From: Ptychomitrium polyphyllum
Taxonomy: Eukaryota
Reading direction: 5' to 3'
DNA length: 64,000 nucleotides
NCBI GenBank assembly: GCA_973851085.1
Contig: OZ316776.1
Coordinates: 14,074,001 to 14,138,000, forward strand
The notes beneath the pieces are model-generated. The model was not told the origin of the DNA, did not search any database, and saw only the letters and a list, made by a program, of their open reading frames with translations. Each line of letters opens with the position of its first letter. The first letter of the stretch is position 1. The position numbers were made by a program, and so were the translations under genes. This document shows positions 29,667 to 61,112 of the stretch, in pieces.

Positions 29667-32600
29667 ATGAATCCTGAGTAGTAAGTACTCTTCCTTTCGC
29701 TCTGTGCTTTTCCGAGTGCCGCTTTCGTCGTGCGAGACACGTCTGTGCATGGGCCTTCCCTGCGATGTTGGGGGTTTGCTTGAATGCACAGGCTCTCTCT
29801 AAATTTCTCTTGCGGGGGGAGTAAGGAAAGCAGGGGCGCTGCAGCAGAAGTTTGTTAGTTTCGGCCGTACATGAATTCTGGTTGTAGATCGCTGGTGGCG
29901 TCTTTAACATAGAGTAAAGGGGTTCACTAGTTCTCTAATGCCGTCATTTGCAACATTGGCAAAGTGGACAAAGTTCTTGATGAGAGTGCAAGTAGGAGGT
30001 TTACTTGGGATGCTTCTCGTAAGGCGTAATTTTGCTCATTAGTCCTCGTTAGGTTTCACGAGCACGACGTGCACGAACATTTCGACCTGGGAGAGCGGGT
30101 GATTCACTGTGGAGAAGTATGGCGAGGCACTTCTGCTTTTTCGATGTGTTCCCGTTAATTGCTTCGGCCACGTTTCGCCTTCTTGATTTTGCAGGGAATG
30201 GCCCAGCTCGTATGTTTGACACGGCGTAGAGATCTGGCCCGTCCGCTCTTATTATCATAACGGCTCATAGCGGCCATGCAGAAGTAGATGTAACTTCGCA
30301 TGGAGGGCGTTGCGGTCATGTCTGGGAGGAAATGTTGAGAGATGCTGTATTGTTGGAAAGAATTCGGCCAGGATTTTACGTTGCTTGTGCTGAGTCCAAA
30401 CTTCGTAAGAAAAATCCAGAGGGTAGGGTTCGGGTGTTTCCAGGCGGACGGGACAGACGTCCACGAGAGTGGTGACGTCATTAGGTTTGTCAGGACGAGG
30501 TGTGGTTTGGACGACATATCGTTCTGTCTTGTTGAAACCGTCATTTTCGCCCTTGGGCTTTGATGATCGAATGCTTTTCTCTGAGGTGGGTGTGTGTTCG
30601 TGGGAAGTTTTACCTTGCGCTGAAACGATCATGCGTTCCCCAGGCTGATATTGTCACTCTGGTCCAAGATTCTGCTTCCAGTATTTCTGTATATTGCTTT
30701 ATGATCGATGGCGAAGATCCACTCTTAGTTTGGTGAAGACTTCTGAAGGGAAGTGTTTCTTCGCGAGGAGTTCCACCTGCAATGATTGTGCTTTGCTGAT
30801 GGTCGAAGGCCTTGTACTTAGGACGGTTGCGGTGGTCCTTGCTGGGCTCATTTTGTGCTCGTTCGTTGGCAATCCGATAGTCTTTGAGGCACCTGAAGAA
30901 GTAGGTGCTAGATGGCGAAGGCCCTCGTCCCGAAGGAGCGCAGGATCCGATTAGGGTAGTTGATCTTAGGGTTGCAGTGGATGTCACCTGGAGACCGCTT
31001 AAGATGACCGGACGTCTCCATCTGGCGCTGGAGTTCTCTGTGCGTGATGTTCTACAGACGGTGACAATTGCAGCATTGGAGTAGTGCTCTAGTGTGTTAG
31101 ATTGGTTGTCATTGTGGGTCCCATGTCTGTGGTTGGGTGCAGTGCACGAGTGTGCATTTCGGGTGGTTCGTGTTTTCTGCTATTCGTGGTTGGCAAGGGC
31201 CGTTATCGTTCCGCAGAGGCCGGACTGAACCTGGTGCCTCTTGCTTTCTTTTTTGCAGTGACTATCTTTTCAAGCTCCTGCTGATTGGAGATTCAGGTGT
31301 CGGAAAGAGTTGCCTTCTGTTGCGATTTGCGGTATTTATCCGATGCCCATTTTCTTCCTTTCCAGGAGTGTTCCCCGCTGCAGAGAGTGTTGGATGTGCA
31401 GGTCTGCATCGTGGAATCGTTTTGAGGTGACGGCGTTTTGCGGTCACTGTATGAACTTGAGAGAGGACATGTTTGGCACGCCACGTGTAATTCGTGCTCG
31501 GGAATGGAAATGACCGTGGACGTGTGTGCAGGACGACTCGTACTTGGAGAGCTACATCAGCACAATTGGAGTGGATTTCGTGAGTAACAGTGGCTCTCCT
31601 GTGTTTTCCGCAGTTTCGTTGTTTCGTGTCAACAGGGCCTGCTGTGTGGTTTTCGGCAGCCGGAGTTGATACGAGTGGTTGGCCGTGTCTGATGCAAATA
31701 GATGGAATTTCCTACCTGATGCTTTGGATGGCTGTGACAGAAAATTCGAACAGTAGAGTTGGACGGGAAGACCATCAAGCTACAAATTGTGAGTGGGTTT
31801 TGGATGCTATGTCGGGAGCAACGTGTTTGCAAGTAGTCGAGTCGGTCTGCACTCGGTAGCTCCTGTGTCGCAGCAGAAAGCTTTTACTACATTGGCTTGG
31901 TCTTTCTCTTGCACGACACGTTGAGTCCGTCGGTCGCTTTTGCATGGATTGGTCCTGGTGATTGGGTGCCTCTTTGGAGGCCTTGAAGCTGGTCTGTTGC
32001 AAGGGGTTGTTCTTATGGGGTGTTCGTAGCAAACGGGGTCATTCTACGCTCGGGGTGCGGTGCCTCCAGATCATGCCAAGGTTCGAGGCGGATGAGATGA
32101 GTTGACCGCGTCTGCTGTGCATGTGTGCAGTGGGATACTGCCGGTCAAGAAAGGTTCAGGACGATCACGAGCAGCTACTACCGCGGTGCCCATGGGATCA
32201 TTGTGAGTGGCTTTGCTTTTTGTCGGGAAGTTTGTGGCGGGCACTGTGGAGTAGGAATATGCTATGAATGTGGAAGATGGGCGGAAGTGTCGCTCGTTTG
32301 TGTTACCGGAGACGAGTGACCAAGTTCGTGCTCTGCTCTGCTCTGCAGGTTGTGTACGACGTGACAGATCAGGAAAGCTTCAACAACGTGAAGCAGTGGC
32401 TAAATGAGATCGACCGTTATGCAAGTGAGAATGTGAACAAGCTGCTCGTTGGCAACAAGTCCGACCTTGCATCCAAGAAGGTGGTGGACTACGCAACTGC
32501 AAAGGTATTTGAGCGGCACCTCACTCGATCTGCCAGCAGTTGAGTCGAGCTACATCTTGAGGTTCTCCTGGTTTGGTTACATCGCAGTATCACCTGAGCC

Positions 32601-33259
32601 CTGTGCCTCCTGGTGAGAGCCAAGTATTCAGGTGGAACATGCATCTTCGGTCCGTCTGGTGTCAATCAGGTTATCCCGTGTCAAGCCATGATCGTTGGTG
32701 GCCCCTTTCATTTCTGACGCATCTTTGGTCGATCTTATGTGTGTCGCGGCGATCAGGCTTTTGCTGATGAGATCGGTATTCCTTTCTTGGAGACGAGTGC
32801 CAAGAATGCCACCAACGTGGAGCAGGCTTTCATGACGATGGCTGCCGAGATCAAGAACAGGTGGGCAAGGCGTCTGTAGGTGTAGGTGGACTTGTTTTTA
32901 TTTCTCACATGCGGCTCTGCTGGAGAGATGTGACAACTGGGATCCTGTGTCCGCATGTACGCGCGGCGGCCTCCGGTCAGTGCAGGGGGCCGAGTCCGGA
33001 GTACATCGCTTTGTTTTGAGGAGATTGGCGAGCAGTGTGTACAGTAGATGCGATCCTTGGTGATTTGGTCATTGTCCCTCGTCAAACGTCGGAAAGCATC
33101 ATGAATGCGCTTCACAGGCCTCATGTGGGATCCTGATGCGATGGCTGTTTGATTTCGTGCAGGATGGCAAGCCAGCCTGCTTTGAGCAGTGCCAGCAGGC
33201 CGAACAATGTGCAGTTGCGCGGGCAGACCATCCCTCAGAAAGGTGGCTGCTGCTCATAG
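29667..33259 (+). CDS. RABD: Rab1/RabD (Ypt1-like) small GTPase, 203 aa
   Basis: Eight exons: 29667-29680, 31259-31331, 31532-31579, 31741-31788, 32131-32202, 32349-32504, 32757-32860, 33163-33259 (612 nt). [41 protein letters not shown]-terminal GGCCS prenylation motif. Confidence 0.97.
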
Positions 33260-40424: not shown

Positions 40425-43400
40425 ATGGCAGATTCTATGGGAGAGCTGGCAATTAGTGGTGGTACATCTTTTTCTCTTACACGTTCTGATCCACTACCCT
40501 TAGTCGTGCCACCGGAGCCTTTACATGTTCGCCCTCCTCCATACGATCCACTCGAGCATCCACATACTATGACGTTGGGGGATGAACTTGTGTCAAATGG
40601 TGAAGAATCTGAGCAGAATGCGACGGCTATGGAGGCTCTCGCTGACGTGAATAGTCCAGATCCAGGAAATATGGATGAGGATGACGTGCCCTCTGACGGC
40701 GAAGACTCTGATGGTAATGACATGATGGGTGATAGCAAAGCCGAATCATTTGAGCAAAACGCGAATGCCATTAACGGGGAAGATTCACAGAATGCTCTCC
40801 GGGACGAAAGGAGGAGCAAACGGGCCGAGTCTTGGGCACGTGCTAGGTTCGATGCGTGGAGAGCTTTGAATAAGAAATCCACTGCGGAAACGATTGAAGG
40901 TTTGTGTGATCGTGATATGAAGGAATTGGGAGAGCTTGTGGGGCTATTCCTAACTCAAGTGCGTAAACAAAATGGCAAAGAGTATCCTCCTGAGACGTGA
41001 GTAGTGTCTATCTGTCTCTTTCTTTATTACTGTGAGATCCCTTTATTGTGCTCACTGGATGTCCGATGAACTACGGGAGTCTATGAATGCTTTGTTCAGG
41101 AGGTGCCAAACGTGATGTAGTTGAAACATTCTTACCTGTATCATTGTTCTGTAACAGCATTGGAAGTCTTCTCAGGGCCTTGGGCCGAGTCATCCGTGCT
41201 CATCAAGAGGCTCGTATTGCTGAGACACAAGTGCCTGAAGTACCATTCAATATTATGTCAGATGCTAGATTCAAGAAAGCCCGACAAGCTGTGAGCGACA
41301 ATGTAGCTTCAGCTGGTAGGCTTGGTTTGGGAAAGAGACGCAAGCGCATCGATGTCTTAACTTTGCATGATGAAGCGGCGATGCTTGCTCTTTCTACCTA
41401 CAAGGCTACCACTGCAAAAGGCTGCTCCATGCGGTTTGCGTATTTCTGCACCCGAAATTTCTTCATCCGTGGCCCAGCAGAGCTTCACGAACTCACCGAC
41501 ATGGACTTGACTTTGGGAAAGGACCAACATGGCGAATTCTTGCGGTATGATTCTTTTTATCATTTATTTGCGGATACTGAAACATTTCACTTCTTGTAAG
41601 GCAGGACAACACAAGATATTACCGGCATTACCAGATACGTTACTGAAATTCATGGATTCATGCTTCGTTAAATATTAGTTATCTGTAGATAATTTTGTAA
41701 GACTTGGGTAAGTAACCTAATCCAGGAGTTGTAAACCACCCATATAAGGAGTAGCTCCTCCAGAATGTTGTTTTTCTACTTACTTTCTGTGTAGCAGATA
41801 TTCTTGGTCATTCTGAAATTTAACTTGGCTGATTGGTATTACACATGCTCTTTGATATTGTTGCTACAACCTGATTAGTAATTTATTCATACAACGCTAA
41901 TGTGCTTCTACTTGTCTTTGGTGCTCAACATAATTTTGTCGATTATGTTTTGAACAGTTATGAAAAGCGGCCCAAAAGTTGGAATTCAGATAGTCCACAA
42001 AGCCAACCTGAGAAATTCTCTCGTCCTGTGACATGCTACATTGAAGATGTGGTTTCGACGTATAAAATTATGGTAGAACACAAACCGAAATGGGCCGAAG
42101 ACGAACCTCCTCCCCGACCATTTTTTCTAACAGACATTAAAAATCCAACTTCAAGAACTGTGGTAAGTTGAGACTTCGTGGTTTCATCATCATCTAGTCT
42201 TTCGCGTGTGAATCAAAGAGCTTCGTCGTGTGTATTTCTGTGCTACTCTGGGAAGAGATATATTTTTCACAATAACCTTGAGAGATGGCATTATACCTTA
42301 CACAAGCATCCATTTTTCATTCTCATACGTACTCTACCCATGGGGTCAATGCTTGATGACATGTAGACATAATGCAAATACATGTACATGCTTGTCAAAT
42401 ACTGTCAATACTTGACCACTCAGTAACTTTCCAGCTTGTTAATTTTCAACAACACCAGATTAGCGGCTGACGCTGATGTATTGATCGAGAAGAGGTTTGT
42501 TCTTGAACCTTGGGATTCAAATTTGCTTTGTACTAGAACTCAAGGCACTGGTTTTCTTAGATTATGTTGTGCCACTTTGAAATGATCTTGCAGTGGTATA
42601 CTCGGTCACCCGTGGGAGTTAGAACGCTAGCAAGCTGGTTGAGGATGATGACCAAAGAAACTGGTCTTGGAGGGGAATACTACACTAATAAGACGGGGCG
42701 GACTACTGGTCTTGGAAGGTATTTGCTTTTCAAATAGAGAATTTCTGGTTGCACTGCATCTATCAATGTTTTTGACGTTTGTACCATACTGTACACGCTC
42801 GTGGTTGCTATTTGACGGAAATCAAAGCATATAAGATATGAGTTTACAGTAGAATCGTGAATGCTTGATTTGGGTTGATGAGTAATTTTGATGATGCAGG
42901 TTGCAATACGCAGGAGTACCTATTGACCAAGACATGCTCGCAACAGGTCCTCGAGTTGCTGGAACATATGCCAGGTAGAAATTAATGCTCTTTTGTGGCG
43001 CTTGTTTCCCCTTTTCTCACTATTAAATCCCTTTTGCGCACTCCATGTGTTTGTGCACTACTTCCTTGGTACCTTAGTCTAGTTTTGACAAGGTATTGTT
43101 TATTACATCTTATTTGTAGGGACGATCCTGAGTTTGAGGGCATTCGGGAAAGAGCAATGCAGCGGATTGTGTCAGGAGAGGTTGATAAATCAACTGGAAG
43201 ACTTATTGATTGGTCGAAAGCTTTGGCCCTAGAAATGGAGCTGTCCAAGAAGCCACAGGTATCATGTTGGCATATTAGAAAGATTCTATCATCTGGCTAC
43301 TAAGCGGTGTAGGACTTTGTTAATCAGAATCTGTTGCTAAATTCATACATTTAGGAAAAACAATTACATATATATATATAAAGCGTTGGTGGGTTGCTCT

Positions 43401-44595
43401 TTCTAAATTACCACGCTGATTATCTTGAAAATTTTATTGCATATTGTTTGGCGTGTTAATGATATCTTAATAGATATTTCTGAGACCCAAGCTAATTCTT
43501 ATATTCGAATCACTGTTTTGTGTGTTCATTCAGTCTGCAGGCACAAGTATTCAAACAGTGGCAATTCAGTCATACAGTCGGGATCTCTGCACAAATATCT
43601 GTTGTCAAGATGTTGGGTCTGAAGGTTCCGAGCCTACTATGTACAAAGAATCTTTTGTCTGTGACACATGTAAACAAGATACCCACTCCAAGGATTCTTA
43701 TGAACGGCACCGTGCTTTGGTTGAAGAACTAGAAAAAACAAAGGAAAGACTAGTCCACCTCGAGCGGAGGTTGCAGGACAAAGAGTTCGATGGTGCAGGG
43801 GAACCAGAGCACCTTCCTCCACCTTATTCAGATATTGTCTTTGAGACACGAGAAGGTCGCAAGGTCTACGGACACAAAGCTGTCTTGGTTAGTTTATTTC
43901 ATTTATAAATTATCGAGTGACTATCATTATTTGAAGAATATCTGCTTTATTATATCATTATTCTAGGGATATCATTATTTGATTTTAGCGCTGCTCCTGT
44001 CCTGATGAGTCAAGATATTTCTGGTCGTGAATGCCGTGATTAACCACCTGTTCTTACAAATTAATTATGCCACTAATGTTAACAGGCCAGCCAATCGGAG
44101 GTCTTCAAGGCCATGTTCAGCATGCCCATAGTAGATGGATCTCCGTTACAAATGGAAATGGGTTACACAGCATTGGATGCTTTTATTCTCTTTTTCTATA
44201 GAGCCACTGTCAATCACTGCGTTCTCAGGAGCCACTTAGTTGCACTTCTGCAAGCAGCAGACAAATATGGTGTTGGAGCACTGAAGTCGCTTTGTGAACA
44301 AGAAATCCTGCAGTCTCTTAGTCCTACCAAAGTGCTAGTTACCTATGTTGTTGGTTGGAGGCATAACTCTGATGTTGTGAAAGAGGGAGTGATTGACTAT
44401 GCGGCAAAGGAAATAGATGATGTGTCAGCTCTTGAAGGGTACGACACTTTCTCAAAGAAATGCCCAGAGGCAGTTATGGAGCTTTATGACGGGGTAGTGA
44501 AACGGTTAAAGCGTAAAATTCCTTGCCGAGAAGCCTTGTCAACAATTCAAGGTCAGCCAGGTTTGTTGATATCAATATTTGACAATGAAATTTGA
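40425..44595 (+). CDS. Crypton/DUF3504-like (tyrosine-recombinase-derived) domain fused to a Cys-rich, coiled-coil, BTB/POZ module; about 788 aa, possibly longer by 3' splicing
   Basis: Exons 40425-40996, 41158-41544, 41958-42162, 42594-42718, 42900-42974, 43120-43258, 43534-43887, 44086-44595 join in frame (2367 nt, no stops). DUF3504-like motifs: FDAWR, GLFLTQVRKQNGKEYPPETIGSLLRALGR, NIMSDARFKKAR, GLGKRRKRIDVLT, NFFIRGPAELHEL, WYTRSPVG, YTNKTGRTT, TGPR. BTB motifs: YSDIVF, GHKAVLASQSEVFKAMF, FILFFY, LLQAADKYGVGALKSLCEQ. Confidence 0.85.
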
Positions 44596-47500
44596 GTATG
44601 TTCAGATTATGCTGCCATGCGAGTCACACATAATTGTCGTTTTGTGGCTTTTAATCTGATGACAATGAATGTATTCTGCTTGTGCTTTATATGTAAGAAG
44701 GGTTCTAAGCCTCAATTTTATCGTTATCTTGAATCTCTCTTTGATGTTTGGTATTGACCTGATTACAGTAAATCGCTATTTAAAATTTTCACATATTTTC
44801 GTTTGTCGTCCTTGACAAGTATATTACAAGTTTTGTTTTCTAGTTCATGCTTGTGGAGATGTCAAGCTTCCGAGTTCAGGGTTCATATGGACTTGACAAT
44901 CTAAGTCTAAAGATTCATGCTTGTGCTGAAGCAAGTATAATAAATAATAACGAAGTTTCTCGTCTTCACCACTGAGGATGCTATTGATGTGCAATATTTT
45001 TTCAATGACCATTTTCAATGCCAGTCAATGTTACAATGGCCTTTCTAAAATAGGCCGAACATTTTGATCTTGTACATACACTTTTTAAGAGATTTGCGAA
45101 GAGGGCAATTCATATGTATTACAGGGTTCATTGTAGTGGAGATCAATGGTTTAGAATGCGTTGTTGGTATCGTACATGATGACATATTGAAATCTATGAT
45201 GGGAGTGTGCAAGCTTGGTATTGGCAATCTCTATGTGGTTACAGGTGGTCTTGGTTTCAGTATGCCACCTCCTATATGATCGTGTCTCTTGCTGTTTCTA
45301 CTGTCTTTAGCTTCACCAATTATGCACATAGTGGTTAGCTGTGGAACTTGTTGACTGCAACCTTAGAGAGAGATTGGGAGTGGACGACATCGTACATCTC
45401 TCTTTTGGGTCCTAAATTGGGTTATTAGTCGACTTGGAACCTAGCACAGGGCAGCCTACATCAACTAAAGAGTGATTGATGAGGTTTTAGAACTGTACAG
45501 TCTTGCAACTAACTATGTGTATACAGTGCAGGCCATAACTCAATGAAGATTTAGAATATAGCAGATGTTTTTGAATTTTCTAAGTTACACAAGTTCAGAT
45601 GCTTTAGATTTTAATTCCTTTGCTGAAGAGAACAGGATTTCTGTTTGATTGGAGGTTATTAATATGTGTGGTGTGATGGCAGCTGCTGACGAAGCCTGTA
45701 CAGGGGATGATATGGAATTGGAACCTGCTGCTAAGAGATCGAAGGTATGATTTTAGAGCAACCCTTCAATTTTTTCCTCATTTTTCTGGGACACTTGCAA
45801 TTTTTCTCAGAAAGTTATGAACATGTCAGTCTAAAGGATATCAATTTAGAAGGGATGCTTGGTAATGCTATACAGCTTTGCATTTCTTTCTCATAGCTTC
45901 AGTTTTGGGAGCTTCCATGAAGTTGAATTTCCTCTTGTGCTTAGCAAATGCCTGTCATGAAGCAGAGCCTTCAAGGAAGTGAGCCGTGCGAATATGTAGA
46001 CAAAGACATAGACACTCAAGAGCAGGCGTTACCACTTGTCCAGGCGACAAGTAGTGAGTGGTAAGAAGAAGGTGAGCTACTTTTTTTTATATCGACTCCT
46101 GTTTTATCCAGACCTTGTTAAACATTCGCATCATTTCCTATATATATGTATGCTATTTTTTATTTATGATTCTAAGGTTAGGCGCACACTCTTTCTTAGG
46201 AAGAGAACATTTTGCTTTGTTCTTGCATGAGGCTGGAAATGTCCTTTTTGCGTTGATACTAAGACCTTCCTTATACTTCACATTGTGGTGTTGCAAAGGC
46301 CTCTTTTAGCGATCAAGTTCCCTGTGAGAAGGCTGGCACCTGGTGAAGTGAGCATTGCAAATTGTGCAAACTATATATTCCTGGCTTCTCTAGGTGGGTT
46401 TCATTAGGTTGGACTGATCTATTTATTACATCCAGTATGAATTTAGATATTTTCAGTCCTCATACTAGGGGCTAATTTTGGTAGTATTCATCTGTGACAG
46501 AAGTTGTATTAAAATATGTTATACTTTTCCACCAATTGAATTAGTCAGATAGCAATTCATTACATTGATGCTCACGGACTTTTGGTATGTACGAGGGTGA
46601 AGAAATAGACCAGGTAGGTTTTCTAAACCCTCGAATGTAAACTAAATTTTACTCCACCTAATATCAGATGTCATGTAAATTTACGCTGATCATATTTTGT
46701 GGATCATTTAATGAGCTCAACGGTGGTAACATGCTGAATTAAATTCCCTTCTGTCGCATGCATAAAATTCATGCATCCAGTTCAACATTGTACTCTAGCT
46801 GTTTGATTGCTATGCGACAGCGGTGAGCATTGAGCTGCTTCAAGATTGTGAATGGCCGCTTTCTGATGAACATCTTTGCTTCTACTGAGAATTTTTCTCT
46901 TAGATAAGATTTTGTGGATATCGAGCCTGGCGTTTGATGTACAGATTTAGATTCTCTTGTGTTTGGACATTTAATATTCTAGCCGTATGCCTGAATTCTT
47001 CCATGGCCTCCTTGTGATATGTGTCGTCCTATTAGGTTGTATCTTGTGTGTTTCTTTCGCTTGAATATTTCGGTTGTTTAGGTCAGAAATTTGTCGATAT
47101 ACCCAGATCCAATTATCTTTGAGTACGTGGTTTTTGTGATGTGATGCTACATTTTTTTGCTCGAAAAACTCATTTCCAAAACTTTCAACTTTTCATTATG
47201 GTAGGCCATCTCATATATCATACCCTAGTTGGCATATCATAGCTCTAATGCTTTACTGAAGAGGACTAGAACTACTTGGTGGCTGATTAAACAGGAGCGA
47301 CCAGGATTTAGGACCCTGAGAGTGTTTTCTCAGTTGTGCTGTTCCAAATATCATCATCTGGTTTATCCTCTCAGGGGTTGGAGTTTGGAGATCCAGAGTG
47401 CTTCTCTAATGGAACTAAAGTTACCGGTTGTCTCACTCAGCTGGGTCTGTCAGGCCGAGTCTAGTGTTTGACAGAAGTTGTACCAGCCTTGCACCTAGTG

Positions 47501-47679: not shown

Positions 47680-48820
47680 TTACAAGTAGTGTGATGATCC
47701 TTATGGTGATCTGTGAGCTTTGTTTCAGCTTCTTGAAAACGCAATTAGAGATTTTGGCAACAAGGTTTGGGTCATCTCTCAGGAAATCTTTGTAGCCGTA
47801 TGTTTCTGAGACGTCATTGTAAATGTTGGCAACGAAATTTATAATGGCGTGCACAAGACGCTCAGCGCCGCATTTCTTGTCAAGAAGAAAATACTAGAAT
47901 ATGAAGTTAGGGTGGATGGAGGTCACCAGATTCTCTTGGCAAAGATTATGAAGTAAATTGATGCCATGCTTGTGAGAAGCACGAAGCAATTTATCAGCAT
48001 TTACATTCATAATGTCATTTTTTACTAAATCAATGTGGAAGGGATGGACGAATGAATCCAAGCTTGCGTGGTCCATGTCCATTTTCACTATCTGTGGGTT
48101 AACAACTTCTCGTGTGGCCGAGAACATGATTTTTAACGCAACTGATTTACCTATCTGCATCACGGCAGACATAAGTGATTTTGACATTTTAAGAACTGCA
48201 AAAGTTTTTCTTTTGTAGAGAAACATCAGGCACGTTTTTGGTCGAAGAATGAGTGGTTTTATGTGAAGGAGGCGGTCAACTTTTATTTCAGTTTGTACGA
48301 GGCAATACGAAGGGCAAAAGAAAGAGGACTCCGGCGGTTTCTTCGGAGGCATGTGATATACTATAAAGGTTATGGAATATCAAGAGAAGGCTGAAAGCAG
48401 ATTGTAAATGAGTGTTCAATTGGTGCTTACCAGTGGATTTGTGTCCGTGGCCCAGCCTTTCGTCATCTGCCTCTAAGACAATATCTGTATGCGATACGAG
48501 CAGGGTTATAATGAAATTTTGCTTCTCCTGGTCTCGCAGTTCGTCTAGCTCGACATTGAGCACATACAAGGCAGAAACCAGCTTGTCATTTGAGATCATC
48601 AAAGATTTCAAGCTAGCTACCTTCATGCACCTACTACATTCCACAAGCTCCACTGACCTTCTAATCAGGATTTGGCCACAACACGAGGAAATACTGTTTC
48701 CAACACTGTCGTCGCCTTCCGCATCATAATAGGAGGACCTGCTTTTGCATTTGGTGTTATAATGAGGACGTAGAGCTGAGGTGGAAGATGAGGTACAACG
48801 TTTCCAATTTCGTTCTCAAT
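47680..48820 (-). pseudogene. BTB/POZ pseudogene paralogous to the C-terminal half of the 40425-44595 gene
   Basis: CCGQ...CSRC, HTDIVLEADD..GHK, intron 48430-48155 at the equivalent position, IGKSVALKIMF, MDMDHASLDSFV, LLRASHKHGINLLHNLCQE. In-frame TAG at 47896-47894, and the donor falls out of phase (TCC ACT G/gt versus GCT GTC TTG/gt). Confidence 0.75.
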
Positions 48821-50924: not shown

Positions 50925-52322
50925 TCATCTCTTTCCCCTCGAAGCTCCCGGAAATACTCTGCTGCTTTTCTGCAGAAAAAAAGAGGACGTCACGTCGAGA
51001 AACCTACCACAAGTTCTCATAGCTATTGCATCAGTGCTGCACAAATTGTCATAAAGACAAATGCATTTGTCGCTCATAAGCTTAAACATTTCCTTGAGAA
51101 CCCTGGAGAGAGAGAGGAGAGGGGTTTACTGTTCTCGAGGCCAGGAGATTTTTCCTCTTTTGATACTTGTACGCTTTCTCTTCAGCTGCTTGTGCTGCTT
51201 TAAGCTTGCGCATGCTTGGTCGGTACAGCAACAACGTTCTCCCCATCTTCCCCACAATTTGAGCTCCAGTTTTCGCCTCAAGCTGACTCGCAGTATCGCT
51301 AAGCTCTTCATCGAGGTTATCCAGTACCCTAATCTGTGAGAGTTGAAGAGTTCCAGTACACATGGTAAGCAACTGAGTTTTCATTAACAAATAAGCATTG
51401 CACACTAAAATAATTACCATACTTGGGATTTGAGATGATCTGTCGTAACGTGTCCTTTAAAGGACGTAGTTAACTCCATAGTAAGAGTGACAAATGCGTG
51501 AAGAGAGCAAACAGGTTGCTCACAAAAATTGAAGGAGTACTGCCAAAGCGCCCTAGTTCAATTAAAAACCCTCTGAGTTCAGACAGGGTTTAAGAATTTG
51601 CCATAAGCATAAGAGAAGAGGATCACCTTGACAAGCTCATTTGCCTCCAATGCATCACTTATAGCTGCAATAGAATTCGTGGTTAAGCCCCATTTCCCTA
51701 CCTGTAATTCAGCACACGAGGTTAGCAGAGCTAAAGATGTTAAAAATCTTCGCCATGGCACACATGTTTGGAATTGCGCAATCTGAACGTTCACAAAAAT
51801 CTCTCCCATGAAGTCATAGGGATGAATAGCGTATTAACGAGTAGGATAAGGAATTGCGGCAACCGAGGGACTAAAACTGACCTGGTGTATGCAAATGTCA
51901 TTGCCTAATTGATGCATATACGCGCGGAGCTCCTTCTTCTCTTTGTTCCCCAGCAACCTAAATGTCCTCTCTACCTTCGCACCCGTCGAGGCTACACTCT
52001 GCACCAGCTCATTTACTTCAGTCTCGTCATCGTCTTCCTCCAGCCCTAATTCATGCTTATACAAAGATAACCCACCTTCCTCCTCCTCCTCCTCCTCGTC
52101 GTACTCTTCCTCTGCCGCCACCGCAGCCACACCGCGAAAGGCCACATGAGCCACAGCCGGCGTCCACGACCTCGCGGGGAGCCGCTGCGTCAGACATTGA
52201 CTACGAAATATCTCAGCATGATGCGCACAGAGTTGGACGTACTGCGAGGAACAAAGATACGAGGAAGACGAAGAGGGTGTGAGCAAGCACGAGAAACTGC
52301 GATGCTGCAACGAGGCTGCCAT
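50925..52322 (-). CDS. Chloroplast single-CRM-domain (YhbY-like) RNA-binding protein
   Basis: Exons 52322-51882, 51701-51627, 51333-51130, 50969-50925. Ser-rich transit-peptide-like N-terminus, acidic tract, then CRM motifs LGNKEKKELRAYMHQL, QVGKWGLT, DALEANELVKIRVL, GAQIVGKMGRTLLLYRPS. Confidence 0.88.
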
Positions 52323-52699
52323 TGACCCCGCCAACGCTGCACTGCAGAACTGGTAATCTCGCACGTGAATGGTTCCAGCGCGGGCCCTAAATCGTAAGAC
52401 CTTGGTTGAACAGCTTCGAACGCTGCCAACGCTGCCAACGCTGCAGACGCAACAGATCCCGACGCGAACCTATCAACCCCACGACAAGCTCTGCATCTCC
52501 AAAGCACCGAATTCCCTCGAATGCTGCCTTCTTGTGTCGCCAACTCGGGATGCGTCCCGGGCACGGTTATGGGTCAACGCAGGTGCCTACATCCCCCGCT
52601 CCAACACCGCGTAAGCCGCCCCCTCTACTCGTGCGCCGATACGTAACAAATCTTTATGTGACCATGTTGATGAAGAAGTCTAGATATCAACAACCATGT

Positions 52700-55686: not shown

Positions 55687-58600
55687 AACGTAATGGAGTC
55701 GATGTCCTCATTGACTATATTTATAGTCGGCACATCATTTCCAAGATATCCATCCTCTAGTGGTGCAGCATTGTATTTCATCCAAAATGCAACTCCCACA
55801 ATGCACTCATAAATCTTTGGCAAAGTCTCAAAGGTATTGTTTAGAAGGTGGTCTGTTTAGGCACTCTAGACAAAATTCTTGGGGTCCTAAACTACTCTAG
55901 ACCTACCTATTTTGAGACCTTCCTGGGATAAACTCCCCAGGTTTACTACACTTCCCTAACTCTACCTTTTTTACTAAGGTGAACCTTGATGCTACACCAA
56001 GTTGTCTTGATTGCAAACCCAAGGTGGCTTTTACTCCACAACTCCATCGCACGGCGGTAATGCCAAGTTCCGCTCAATCTGGATCCTACTTTCCCTTTGA
56101 GATATGGATTCATGACTCCCATGCACTAATTTTTGTTGTTTTGTTGGAGTGGCGCTTATATGAGCACGCGCCATTACTTTGTCCTTGCCCAAACAAGCCC
56201 GAGGCGAGGAGGTTTCATGGTTTTAACCATTCTTCCTCCCAGCCTTGGTCCCCATTACTCGGCCTTCCCAACTTGGTTTCACATGTCTATTCCCCCTCTT
56301 CTACCAACTTAGCACAAGCATAAGACTAGGACGTCATCTTGTCCTCTTCTCTTTGCACACACAAAAGTTGAACTGTATTGCCATAAGTCAAAGAACCAAT
56401 ACATGATGTAAAGAAGTTACTGCTACAAGTCTCTCTTCCCCTACTAAAAGAGATTGATGTCCTCATCAATGCCGACGTTGTCTTTTGTTGGAGTTCCTAT
56501 CCCTTTCAAAAGGTTCCACCACTTCATTGGCATTTCCCAAGTCCTTGGCCGCTACCCAAGTTGCTTCCTTTTCATAGTACCTTCTCCACTTCACCAAATA
56601 TTCTTTTCCTATTTTCTTGTGGTGCCTACACTTGAGAATTCCTTCTACTTCGTATTCCAAGTGGTTGTCCACCAATTCCGGCAGTGGCCAAATCACTTGT
56701 TTGCGATTGGGCCACAAGGTATCTTTTTTGAATGGCTTAAGGAGTGAGACATGAAATGTTGGGTGCACTTCGATTTCAAATGGTAGCTCCAACTTGTACA
56801 CATCTTTAAATACCCGCTCCACAATAGAAAACGGCCCCGTAAACTTAGACATGAACTTTGGAGTGAGGCCTTCGGGCAAGTTAAAGTTCTTGACATTCAA
56901 CAACACCTTTTGGCCTACTTCATACTCCACTTCACGTCTTCCGGCATTGACTTGTTTCTTGTACCGCTTTTGTGCCTTTTCCAACAAAAGCTTGGTCTTC
57001 TCTAACATTTATTCCCGCGTTTTGGCCAAATTCTCACCATCTTGGTTAAATTCTAGTGTTGAATGAAAATCCTTCAAGAGCTAAGTCGGCAGGCTAGAGT
57101 GGCTCCACTCCATAGACCACCTTAAATGGCGACTATTTTGTCGCCAAATGATTGGCCGCATTGTAATTGAACTCCGCTAGGCTCACATAATCCACCCAAT
57201 CGCACTAGTCTGCACTCACAAAGTTCCTCAAGTATTGGTTCAAGACTCCGTTCACTTGTTCCGTTTGCCCATCCGTTTGAGGATGGAAGGTAGTGTTAAA
57301 CGTCAATTTGGTTCCAACTTTGCTAAAGAAATGTTTCCAAAAAGCACTAGTGAATTTTGGATCTCGGTCCGACACAATCACTCTTGGCAACTCGTGATGT
57401 TTCCACCATGCATCGAGGAATAGCTTTGCGGTCTCATGTGCAGTTTCGATTCCTCTACTTGGCACCATGTGCGCCAACTTGCTAAAGCGATCGACCATCA
57501 CGAAGATGGCATCATACCCTTGCAATTCTGGAAGACTTGTGATGAAGTCCATGGACATGCTATGCCATGGACTCGGTGGAATTGGCAAAGGTTGTAGTAG
57601 ACCGGCTTGCTTTTGATAAAAGGCTCTATTGAGTTGGCACTTCACACAAGTTTTCACAAAGTCGGTGATGTCCGCTTTCATGCCCGACCAATAGTACCTT
57701 CTTGACACCGCCGCTATGGTGGATTTTTCCCCTCTATGGCCGGCTATGGGACTATCATGTTCTTCTTTCAAAACCAACAACCGTAGTTTTTCTTGAGGCA
57801 CATACACCCGACCTTGTTTGTACTTTAGCAATCCCTTCTCCAACTTAATTTCCTTAAGTTTCTTACCCTTCTTAAGCTCACCGAGAAGCCTTTGTGCTTC
57901 GGAATCCTTCATGTACCCCTCTCTTATCTTCCTTTCCAAATTGCCTTCTTCTTTGTACATTACTCGCAGGACTTGGGTTGTGCCCTTTGCTAGCAACTCC
58001 TCCCGCCTACTTAGAGCATCCGGCACTACATTGTCTTGCCCCGGCTTGTGGATCAAATCCACATTCATGAGTGCCAAGGTGTCGTGCCACCTCAATTGTT
58101 TTGCACTCATTTGTGCTTGCGACTCAAAGTACTTCAAGGACACGTTGTCCGTGTAGACTTTGGTATTATGTAGGCCCAAGTAGTGCCGCCATGTTTTCAA
58201 ACAATGCACTACAACAAAGAGTTCTTTCTCGTGCATGGGCCACCTCTTTTGGCACCCATTCAACTTCATGCTCTCACAGGCAATTGGCATGCCTTCTTGC
58301 ATGAGCACTCCGCCAATGGCAAAGTCACTTACATCCCTGTGGACCTCAAAAGGCTTTTCAAACTCAAGAAACTTCAATACCGGCGGTTGAAATAATTTGT
58401 CCTTGAGTTCCTTAAAAGCTTGGTGACAAAATTCATCTCATATTTGGCTAGCTCCTTTCTTCAACAAGTCGGACAAAGGTCTAGTAATTTTGGAGAAATT
58501 GTATATGAATCTCCTCTAATAATTTGCTAGGCCGAGAAATGATCTCAGCCCCTTTTATGTAGAAGGTTGTTTCCACTCTCTAATTGCCTTTATCTTCCTT

Positions 58601-61112
58601 ATGTCCGGCTTGATTCCATCATCCGTTACTATGTGGCCCAAGAACTCAATCGCAAGTTGAGCAAACTCACTCTTTTCTCCGTTGGCATAAAGCTTGTGGT
58701 CCCTAAGTTTTTGAAGCACCACTTCGAGGTGCCTTGCATGTTCTTCTGCCAACTTGGAGTACACCAAGATGTCATTAATGTAGACAATGACAAAGTCATC
58801 CATCTCTTCTTGAAAGATGGTATTCATGAGGGTCGTGAACATTGAAGGAGCATTACACAACCCAAATGGCATCACCAAAAATTCATAGGACCCATACCTA
58901 GTGCGGCATGCGGTCTTTGGCACGTCTTCATCCGCAATGTGGATTTGATAGTAGCCCGACTTCAAGTCTATCCGACTAAAGTATTTAGCTCCCGCCAATC
59001 TATCAAAGAGGTCATCAATGCGAGGCAAAGGATAGTTGTTCTTGATGGTGGCTTTATTCAAGGCTCTATAGTCGACGCACATGCGGAGCTTGCCATCCTT
59101 TTTGTCTACAAAGAGGACCGATGCTCCATATGGCGACTTACTTGGCCTAACATAGCCTCTTTCCAACAAGTCATTCAATTGCTTCTTCAATTCCTCTTGC
59201 TCTTTTTGGTTCAACCGGTATAGAACCTTTGAAGGGGGCTTCATTCCCGGTATTACTCCAATTTTGTGATCCCCTTCTCTTCTTGATAATAACTCTGCGG
59301 GCAGCTCATTGGTGAGCACATCCTTGTAACCTTTTAGTACAATTTGAATGCACTTGGAAATAGTTCTTACCTCCTTGGCACTTGGCCTATTGCCTTCTTC
59401 TTGTTCCATATGCATCACAACAACAAATTGATTATTCTCTAATTGCTTTAAGGAGACTAAGTTCAACTTTCTTCCCACAACCATAGGAGTCCTAATCAAC
59501 TTCAATATTGCCTCCTTTCCACCACAGTGCACTACTAACCGTGTTGGCTTTCGCTTCACATCCACCACATGAATTTCAAAAAAGGTATCACCTAAAATGA
59601 GGTCTATCTCATCCATCTCACATAGTGTAAAATTTTCCTTCAATTCCAATGTTCCACTGCTTAAGGCCACATCCAACACCACCTCTTTTATCTCGTACGG
59701 TTTGCCTTTTGCAAATTGCACATTGATGGCAAGCCCAACTTCCTTGCTAGCTTGGAACTCATGAAGGAGTGCGTTGCCGCTGTGTCAATTAAACATAAGA
59801 CATTTTTGCCATTTATTTAGTTCTCAAGGTACAAGAGACTCAACCTTGCTTTAAGGCTACTAGCCTTAGCCACAAATCCACCTTCTAAAATGTGATCTAC
59901 AACACAAGTGTGACAAGCTTTGGTACTCAACTTTTTATCGGGGCACTCCGCAATGAAGTGACCAATCTTGCCACACCCGTGGCAATGCTTGTGCTTCACC
60001 TCAGCACCCTTATCTCCCAATTTGAATGGTTTTTTCTCATGATGGTCCACTTTGTTGTAGGCCCTTCCATCTACTTGTTCCTTGTGGTTGTTTCCAAAGC
60101 CAAATTTCTTGCGTTCTCCGCCGCGAGATACATTTCGGCTCAATCCATTTTGATGAGAGAGACCACTTGATTTTTTTTCGGGTCCGTCGGCTTCAATTCT
60201 TTCCACAATCTTAATGATTCTCGCCACGTTCTCTGGAGGCTTTGGGAACTTGAACAAGGCATCCACCACCCACTTTTGAAGCCCACCTAAAAAGATGCAT
60301 TTCTTTGAAAACTCATCCATTTTGAATGTGGCATTCATTTGGGCGTTGAAATATTGCACATAAGTCTTGAGGGACCCGGTGTGCGTCATTTGCACCAAGT
60401 TCATGCCCTCCCTCAACTCTTGATATTCCGGAGTGAAGCGTTCATTCAAAATCTCCTTAAAACCGACCCAAGACAAAGTCGCCACCAACTCCGGCTCTTG
60501 CTCCTTTTTACTTGTCCACCATTGAAGAGCATGGTCCTTTAGAAAGGTCACCGCAATTGAAACCTTGTCCCCCTCGTCCGGCTTTTGAACATCATAATAG
60601 TTGTCAATTTCCAAAAAAAACTCCTTCACCTTCCTCGCTTTACCTAGCCTAGAAAAAGTGCTTGGCATGTTCACCTTGGCCAACTTCTTGGTCAAAGATG
60701 AGGGTTGGGAACCTTGTGCCTTCAAGTGCTCAATCAACTTCTCTTGACAGGTCCTTTTTTTTTTTGCCACGCTTGAATTCTTGGTTCACACCGTCCGTGA
60801 ACTCAAGCATTTTCATGCGAAAACTTAAGTTAGAGTCGCGACTTTCTAGGCCTTCAGGTAGCTCAGGAATCCTAGCTCCTAAGTACTCTACACCCTCCAA
60901 CGCTTCGTCTTGTTGAGTTTCCTCAACTTCCTCGGTGACTCTAATGTCATTCCCTTGCTCATTGGAATTGAAGGTTGGAGCCTCATTAATCGGATCGGGG
61001 TCTTTGTTCACCTTCATGCGTAGTCGTTTAGAGGCCCCGGGCTCACCGCCATCACGGGCCTTCTTCTTACCCATTGCCTCTTTGCAACGTAGCACTTGGA
61101 TATTCAAAGTCT

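Follow-up and report, generated by a model that had tools for sequence, protein, structure and literature searches.

A conserved moss gene joins a Crypton-type tyrosine recombinase, predicted to have lost DNA cleavage, to a BTB domain

Domestication of Crypton-type tyrosine recombinases by host genes has been described for animals and yeasts. In vertebrates, isoform b of KCTD1 carries an N-terminal Crypton-derived DUF3504-type domain, spliced before a pre-existing BTB gene, that has lost its Tyr and resides in a conserved host gene (PMC3212892). The domesticated DUF3504 regulators QRICH1, ZMYM2-4, WOC, and KIAA1958 share the two-domain recombinase fold, lack the nucleophile and are strongly conserved; QRICH1 is part of Zincore (PDB 9hjt), and all animal domesticated DUF3504 genes lost both the Tyr and the second Arg (PMC3212892). 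In plants, the ALOG transcription factors are regulators derived from a transposon tyrosine recombinase (PMC3537659). Here we describe a gene of the moss Ptychomitrium polyphyllum in which a Crypton-type recombinase, disarmed as judged from alignment with its closest relatives, is fused to a BTB domain. It lies in a stretch of 64,000 nucleotides that was analysed as a whole (the window; GenBank assembly GCA_973851085.1, contig OZ316776.1, positions 14,074,001 to 14,138,000 of the forward strand), to which all coordinates below refer.

The gene consists of 10 exons on the plus strand (40425-46064), and its spliced product of 827 amino acids (aa) comprises, in this order, an acidic N-terminus, a core-binding domain, a DUF3504-like catalytic domain, a Cys-rich and probably coiled-coil linker, a BTB domain, and a weak BACK domain. 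In Atlas, the first half falls with DUF3504/integrase clusters (0.98) and the second half with plant At4g08455-like BTB clusters (0.94). Pfam recognized the BTB domain (E 1.3e-16), with BACK_BPM_SPOP (E 0.006) and, on the Physcomitrium patens orthologue, QRICH1 (E 0.015) below cut-off, and the BTB and BACK-like part together matched SPOP (E 6e-12). A NCBIfam search of the P. patens protein gave zero matches. P0089, a close relative, passes Pfam DUF3504 at 31.7 bits. The moss model scored E 1.8e-36 against a profile made from land-plant relatives, with the moss gene excluded (a search of six-sequence scale, 3 targets), and 620 proteins matched at E<=0.001 among the 1.84 billion searched. The second of two AlphaFold models, based on 54 sequences, reached a mean predicted local distance difference test (pLDDT) of 83.6 and contained both the core-binding and the catalytic fold; it matched Cre (Z 15.8, root-mean-square deviation 5.0, 283 residues aligned; Foldseek E 5.5e-6), XerA (Z 14.2), and QRICH1 on DNA (9hjt_H, Z 13.4), with a weak match to 8p5q of the ALOG family (Z 6.1). 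The similarity of the domain to tyrosine recombinases exceeds chance.

Compared to KCTD1 isoform b, the moss gene exhibits several features of its own. First, its recombinase belongs to a land-plant clade. Second, its BTB domain is of the At4g08455/SPOP-like type and is accompanied by BACK. Third, it keeps the second Arg. Furthermore, the moss recombinase domain is interrupted by five introns, whereas that of KCTD1 lies within one exon (PMC3212892). Compared to QRICH1, ZMYM2-4, WOC, and KIAA1958, the moss gene has no MYM fingers, CARD, or Gln-rich part, possesses BTB-BACK, and keeps Arg-Lys-Lys-Arg. While ALOG proteins are DIRS-derived and hold the N-terminal domain only (PMC3537659), the moss gene has the whole catalytic fold plus BTB. 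At4g08455-like plant BTB proteins and the SPOP/BPM adaptors likewise place BTB and a BACK-like domain after a Cys-rich, likely coiled-coil stretch, but the moss gene lacks MATH and carries the presumably dead recombinase at its N-terminus.

Orthologues of the fusion gene are found across mosses. With exon 2 as query, the P. patens orthologue (PHYPA_013307, 824 aa) was retrieved, in a cluster that includes Ceratodon purpureus proteins, and a second cluster holds that of Sphagnum magellanicum. The window protein is 87% identical to the Physcomitrium, 93% to the Ceratodon, and 63% to the Sphagnum protein, and 90-94% to two further proteins. Intron position and phase are common to the window gene and Sphagnum at all seven introns that the Sphagnum loci cover. 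By the Nei-Gojobori method, the ratio of nonsynonymous to synonymous substitution rates (dN/dS) of the catalytic domain is 0.092 against L001, a spliced contig of another moss (dS 0.69), and 0.081 against Sphagnum (dS 1.9, near saturation); it is 0.10-0.11 for the core-binding domain, and 0.52 (L001) and 0.25 (Sphagnum) for the acidic N-terminus. Invariant columns make up 168/230 of the recombinase part and 114/175 of the BTB part, so that conservation of the former is no lower than that of the latter. A word-index search with the recombinase region matched only 3 moss proteins, and among the 254 collected proteins the BTB part occurs only in the clusters of the moss gene itself and in its paralogue. 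A 10-kb Sphagnum locus (L003) matches the window neighbourhood only at the fusion gene and a BTB paralogue, and the 64-kb window holds one copy of the fusion gene.

The orthologues, common introns, and dN/dS of about 0.09 establish the locus as a conserved moss host gene under purifying selection, and exaptation with the reading frame kept intact, as the earlier note on this DNA had proposed, is borne out. They also bear on the idea that a mobile or recently dead Crypton merely lies beside a BTB gene and has no host function. A decayed paralogue of the fusion gene does exist in P. patens (P0006, PHYPA_017900; the annotated protein lacks box II and box III) and would suit such an idea, but against it stand the orthologues with common introns from Sphagnum to Physcomitrium, the low dN/dS, and single spliced contigs over both domains. 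Moreover, repeats of at least 14 nt flanking the gene, searched for between 36 and 50 kb of the window, gave only chance-level pairs, and repeats of 4-6 bp were inseparable from chance. This explanation is largely refuted and may be regarded as very improbable.

Evidence for the gene model came from RNA contigs of related mosses rather than of P. polyphyllum, from four runs, one of which was only guessed to be RNA. In 4/4 runs, contigs show GT..AG joints where the model places its exon borders, and in 3/4 runs one contig spans exon 1 to the BTB exon and joins the recombinase to the BTB exons. Exon 1 (40425..40996) opens with the ATG and encodes the poorly conserved acidic N-terminus (aa 1-125) and the onset of the helical core-binding (QRICH1-like) domain; its joint to exon 2 (40996/41158) is present in the contigs. 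Exon 2 (41158..41544) completes the core-binding domain and begins the catalytic domain, with a basic KRRKR stretch in it that is possibly a nuclear signal. Lys326 lies in exon 3 (41958..42162), box II in exon 4 (42594..42718), Pro447 and Tyr453 in exon 5 (42900..42974), and in exon 6 (43120..43258) Asp456 is the first whole codon, followed by the final helix of the recombinase fold, which is conserved. Exon 7 (43534..43887), the joint into which is also present in the contigs, covers the Cys-rich stretch (by eye a likely coiled coil) and the start of BTB at about 43828. The remaining BTB and the BACK-like domain, At4g08455/SPOP-like (BTB E 3.8e-8, BACK E 1.8e-4), are encoded by exon 8 (44086..44551), which if read through unspliced leads to a stop at 44595. 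The acceptor of exon 9 (45683..45744) was picked by fit to orthologues, and its donor is seen in contigs (joint 45744/45966 in X23 and X18); exon 10 (45966..46064) runs to the stop codon.

The joint 42974/43120 is of particular weight, as the reading of the C-terminal box given in the earlier note is correct only once it has been spliced. The contigs X20, X21, and X23 show this GT..AG skip, X18 has one extra letter at the joint, and the annotated Physcomitrium, Ceratodon, and Sphagnum proteins agree with this reading. Alternative splicing that supplies a Tyr was considered and rejected. There are eight other acceptors in or near intron 5, two of them in frame (43078 and 43093), and use of 43093 would place a Tyr at +9. 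Neither joint occurs in the RNA contigs, which lose rare forms and some joints of which were not displayed; the two acceptors sit in a part of the intron where related mosses differ by indels, and the annotated orthologues use 43120. In L001, extra bases at the exon 4/5 joint (~2580-2600), perhaps an alternative acceptor, cause a frameshift and a truncated protein, P0002.

The earlier note proposed that the catalytic residues of the module had been selectively inactivated, and the five codons on which it drew were all found exactly: Arg295 of box I (CGT, 41468-41470), K-T-G-R of box II (42690-42701, with Lys421 at 42690-42692 and Arg424 at 42699-42701), Pro447 in box III (CCT, 42949-42951), Tyr453 (TAT, 42967-42969), and Asp456 (GAC, 43121-43123). 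The question is which column the nucleophile occupies. In a first test set of 18 distant Crypton-like proteins, the spacing between the box III His and the Tyr was 8 in 17/18. A MAFFT alignment with these proteins moved Tyr453 to the column of the nucleophile by way of a two-residue deletion, an outcome that the earlier note had named as refuting its proposal, and a local profile of them did not align the moss C-terminal box at all. Closer relatives reversed this outcome: these proteins, from Riccia, Calypogeia, Marchantia, Adiantum, Diphasiastrum, and Selaginella, have 33-38% identity to the moss protein across the module as a whole and align without gaps and at a spacing of 9.

For the closer comparison, in which the box II pattern was present in 68/150 hits, 24 relatives were hand-picked for Lys/Arg at box II and His at box III (23 pattern rows and P0084), and the Tyr was not a criterion; P0108, P0112, and P0150, which are truncated or divergent in the box III region, and P0110, a fragment of the Sphagnum gene, were left out. 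Counted from the box III His, which stands opposite Pro447, these relatives have Tyr (23) or Phe (1) at +9, Tyr (16), Phe (5), or Leu (3) at +6, Lys/Arg at +8 in 18, and Asp at +10 in 16. The moss protein has Tyr453 at +6, Arg at +8, Asp456 at +9, and Asp at +10. Its box is gap-free between two anchors that both fit best at shift 0 (33.4 and 26.2 bits), the hidden Markov model posterior is in the top class throughout, and moving Tyr453 to +9 by a single deletion costs 58 bits. Both Pro447 and Asp456 are present in 6/6 full-length moss proteins. Since the closer land-plant relatives align without gaps and with Tyr opposite Asp456, the alignment indicates that the nucleophilic Tyr was lost to Asp456 and that Pro447 took the place of the box III His. 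Both substitutions had been proposed in the earlier note, with the nucleophile at the same spacing, and its own doubt over Tyr453 is resolved in its favour, as this residue occupies a separate column, the conserved -3 position of the clade, three residues before the nucleophile.

Not every catalytic residue has changed. The window gene keeps Arg295, Glu299 (41480-41482), Lys326 (41974-41976), Lys421, and Arg424, that is, 5/7 residues of the catalytic face. Among relatives, Tyr is found at the Asp456 column in 23/24 (22/24 in the second alignment), His at the Pro447 column in 24/26, Lys at the Lys421 column in 28/30, Arg at the Arg424 column in 28/29, and Lys at the Lys326 column in 23/24; Lys326 and Arg424 are retained in all orthologues. 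Lys in 28/30 relatives indicates that the Lys of KxxR is the ancestral and normal state of the plant clade and not a loss, in line with the earlier remark that KxxR need not be inactivating, and Lys421 was counted as no change. The Sphagnum gene has Ala in place of Glu299 and also lacks two residues preceding Pro447. Of 44 columns conserved in at least 80% of relatives, the window gene keeps 35, and changes affect 2/7 catalytic versus 7/37 other conserved columns (Fisher p 0.44). For changes common to Sphagnum, the counts are 2/7 versus 4/37 (p 0.24), and for radical changes common to Sphagnum 2/7 versus 1/37 (p 0.06). While His III and the Tyr did change, these values make selective inactivation of catalytic residues suggestive only. 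That the two codons are each one base from CAT and TAC, as pointed out previously, is true but carries little weight, because 7/19 residues are one base from His and 6/19 from Tyr.

Cre is inactive with each of 19 replacements of its nucleophilic Tyr and also with H289K (PMC2943603), and the box III residue supports the Tyr helix. Because Cre tolerates no Tyr substitution, loss of DNA cleavage by the moss protein is strongly predicted and very probable. Residual chemistry is still conceivable, because 5/7 residues of the catalytic face are kept: the Arg-Glu-Lys-Lys-Arg pocket could activate the phosphate, the attacking group being either Tyr453, moved into position by loosening of its helix, or a Tyr or water provided in trans, to yield nicking or an activity like that of topoisomerase IB. 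The four non-Tyr residues of topoisomerase IB include Arg, Lys, and Arg, all kept in the moss gene (PMC2943603), but its box III His, also required, is Pro in the moss protein. KxxR occurs in active SSV1-type integrases (PMC8371274), for which two reference titles suggest cleavage in trans. Tyr453 is invariant in 6/6 orthologues, but its conservation needs no catalysis, because 24/24 relatives have an aromatic residue or Leu in its column next to the genuine nucleophile. Residues 444-459 are the sole stretch of the model with pLDDT < 50, so that their placement is uncertain; as the model is of the moss protein and has no intact relative as a control, this low value was not taken as proof of helix loss. 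In addition, the Asp is negatively charged where the nucleophile would be, and Sphagnum lacks Glu299 and the residues ahead of Pro447. Taken together, such residual catalysis appears improbable.

The recombinase of the moss gene points to a land-plant source. A quick IQ-TREE analysis of 58 hand-picked rows of 102, with support from the Shimodaira-Hasegawa-like approximate likelihood ratio test (SH-aLRT) only and no named animal gene such as KCTD1 included, placed five moss rows as a clade (support 100) within a land-plant clade of 34 rows (SH-aLRT 100), which stands on a branch of 1.19 and is separate from HxxR-type proteins. The named members of this clade are liverworts, lycophytes, and ferns; one row labelled beforehand as outside fell inside it, and the sister of the moss gene was unresolved. 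From this nesting among land-plant proteins, we infer that the moss fusion arose independently of KCTD1 isoform b. CryptonA and Glomhopper recombinases likewise combine QRICH1-like and DUF3504-like domains (PMC3212892, PMC13465315), are the nearest Atlas clusters (0.98), and match by profile (E 6.6e-15 in a 6-target search). However, they keep R-H-R-Y, whereas KxxR is the form present in the moss lineage and neither His III nor the Tyr is left in the moss gene, and the closest relatives of the moss gene form the separate land-plant clade on its long branch. Compared to a Crypton DNA transposon, the moss gene has no intact recombinase and is fused to BTB in a 10-exon gene.

Several members of the land-plant clade keep R-E-K-K-R-H-Y. 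P0074-P0100 and others (Riccia, Calypogeia, Adiantum) form a Crypton-like recombinase clade with intact R-E-K-KxxR-H-Y, of which the literature searched gave no account and which is multi-copy in Adiantum. Adiantum copies 98.6% and 89.6% identical lie on different chromosome-size contigs, as expected of transposons. A gene model of Adiantum capillus-veneris (P0080) joins PPR repeats to an intact clade recombinase, possibly an annotation artefact.

The explanation that we consider the most probable, at better than even odds but well short of certainty, is that of a moss host gene whose cleavage-dead Crypton-type module would still grip DNA and carry a BTB-BACK domain to chromatin. Before the divergence of Sphagnum from the remaining mosses, a land-plant Crypton-like element would have inserted upstream of an At4g08455-like BTB gene, to which its recombinase would then have been joined by splicing. 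The loss of the cutting residues may have made the recombinase safe to retain. The core-binding domain together with Arg295, Lys326, Lys421, and Arg424 could grip the DNA backbone in the manner of a recombinase clamp, and BTB-BACK would dimerise and probably recruit CUL3 or co-repressors, which would make the protein a regulator of transcription or chromatin. On the minus strand (~47720-48600), a paralogue that has only BTB is arranged tail to tail with the fusion gene, with 26% identity over 143 aa (E 3e-14), an upstream Cys pair, and an in-frame stop at 47894-47896. It is probably a decayed At4g08455-like gene of the type that donated the BTB half.

Several observations weigh against this explanation. 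First, the moss gene scores 22.7 bits against Pfam DUF3504 (E 1.2e-4), under the cut-off of 29.7. Second, transcription was observed in related mosses only, by way of contigs. Third, Tyr453 fell at the place of the nucleophile in an alignment restricted to distant relatives, and when a three-residue deletion is balanced by a three-residue insertion, the resulting register scores 36.0 versus 35.2 bits (+0.8) before gap costs. Fourth, 5/7 residues of the catalytic face are intact, unlike in the animal domesticated DUF3504 genes. Finally, the likely CUL3 motif, which aligns with SPOP in Sphagnum, ends in Asp and not Glu in the window protein.

Two other roles have been weighed for the fused protein. 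As a decoy in transposon control, the dead recombinase would occupy the element ends of its own family or enter and poison the recombinase complexes of that family, and through BTB-BACK any recombinase that it captured would be degraded in a CUL3-dependent manner. In favour of a decoy, the moss protein has preserved its DNA-facing residues well, along with the last helix, which links subunits in Cre, and in these parts it is similar to Riccia proteins. Intact relatives persist in land plants, and the recombinase occupies the place of the substrate-binding domain of a SPOP-like adaptor. On the other hand, strong and even purifying selection over deep time suits a housekeeping or developmental role more than an arms race, identity to the sampled elements is only 33-38%, and none of the relatives identified by name is an intact moss element. 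The decoy role thus seems unlikely.

A slightly less probable role is that of a protein-only scaffold, in which the recombinase fold would serve as substrate receptor of a BTB E3 adaptor and DNA would no longer be needed. In BTB-BACK adaptors, the N-terminal domain usually selects protein substrates, which together with the SPOP match of the BTB-BACK part counts in favour of such a scaffold, and protein-protein roles for DUF3504 are allowed for in PMC3212892. However, the phosphate-facing basic residues are kept across mosses, the recombinase domain is net basic (59 K+R versus 46 D+E), and the structure of the animal counterpart QRICH1 was solved on DNA, according to the title of PDB 9hjt.

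Fusions of related modules are also seen elsewhere in land plants. P0243 of P. patens (XP_024374408) joins a Coilin N-terminal domain to a truncated module without Arg I, Lys, and both C-terminal boxes, possibly another capture. The lycophyte proteins P0105, P0109, and P0111 (Diphasiastrum, Selaginella) form a clade (support 100) in which a common N-terminal domain is fused to a fully dead recombinase module; this domain has zero Pfam matches and looks PAXX/XRCC4-like. In the conserved Marchantia gene (P0082, Mp5g04240 of M. polymorpha, and P0226 of M. paleacea), Arg, Glu, Lys, RxxR, and Tyr are aligned and Thr stands at His III, where the alignment is less sure; it is possibly a further domestication that may keep the nucleophile. 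A bolder proposal, tentative and rather doubtful, is that the moss protein is a DNA-targeted ubiquitin ligase, in which a dead Crypton clamp with its entire phosphate-activating pocket and a CUL3 adaptor would recognize recombinases or sites of the Crypton type. In this view, an undescribed land-plant Crypton lineage would have been captured several times independently, with examples in the BTB and coilin-N fusions of mosses, the lycophyte fusion, and the single conserved Marchantia gene, and the KCTD1b event would have been repeated in plants.

In the remainder of the window, Ty3/Gypsy-type retrotransposon remains (gag-, reverse transcriptase-, integrase-, and chromodomain-like frames, by eye) lie on the minus strand at ~55900-61100. 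We take the neighbouring host genes, likewise judged by eye, to encode a Rab1/RabD GTPase-like protein (~31000-33000, plus strand) and a CRM-domain protein-like product (51000-52500, minus strand).

A domesticated Crypton-type recombinase in mosses is thus real and conserved, and it is apparently undescribed: no description of the moss gene or of a domesticated land-plant Crypton was found in the papers searched, outside subscription journals and Repbase. Loss of catalytic residues is in itself an expected hallmark of domestication and unsurprising. Sphagnum split from other mosses some 350-400 million years ago. Collectively, these results suggest that a Crypton-type recombinase was captured in a moss ancestor, disarmed, and placed under strong selection, with a BTB fusion as in KCTD1b that was apparently independent. 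The moss gene keeps more active-site residues than any animal case and may therefore represent an earlier or different step of disarming. As Physcomitrium patens, a simple model whose genes are routinely knocked out or point-mutated, has an orthologue, the function of a DUF3504 domain becomes directly testable.

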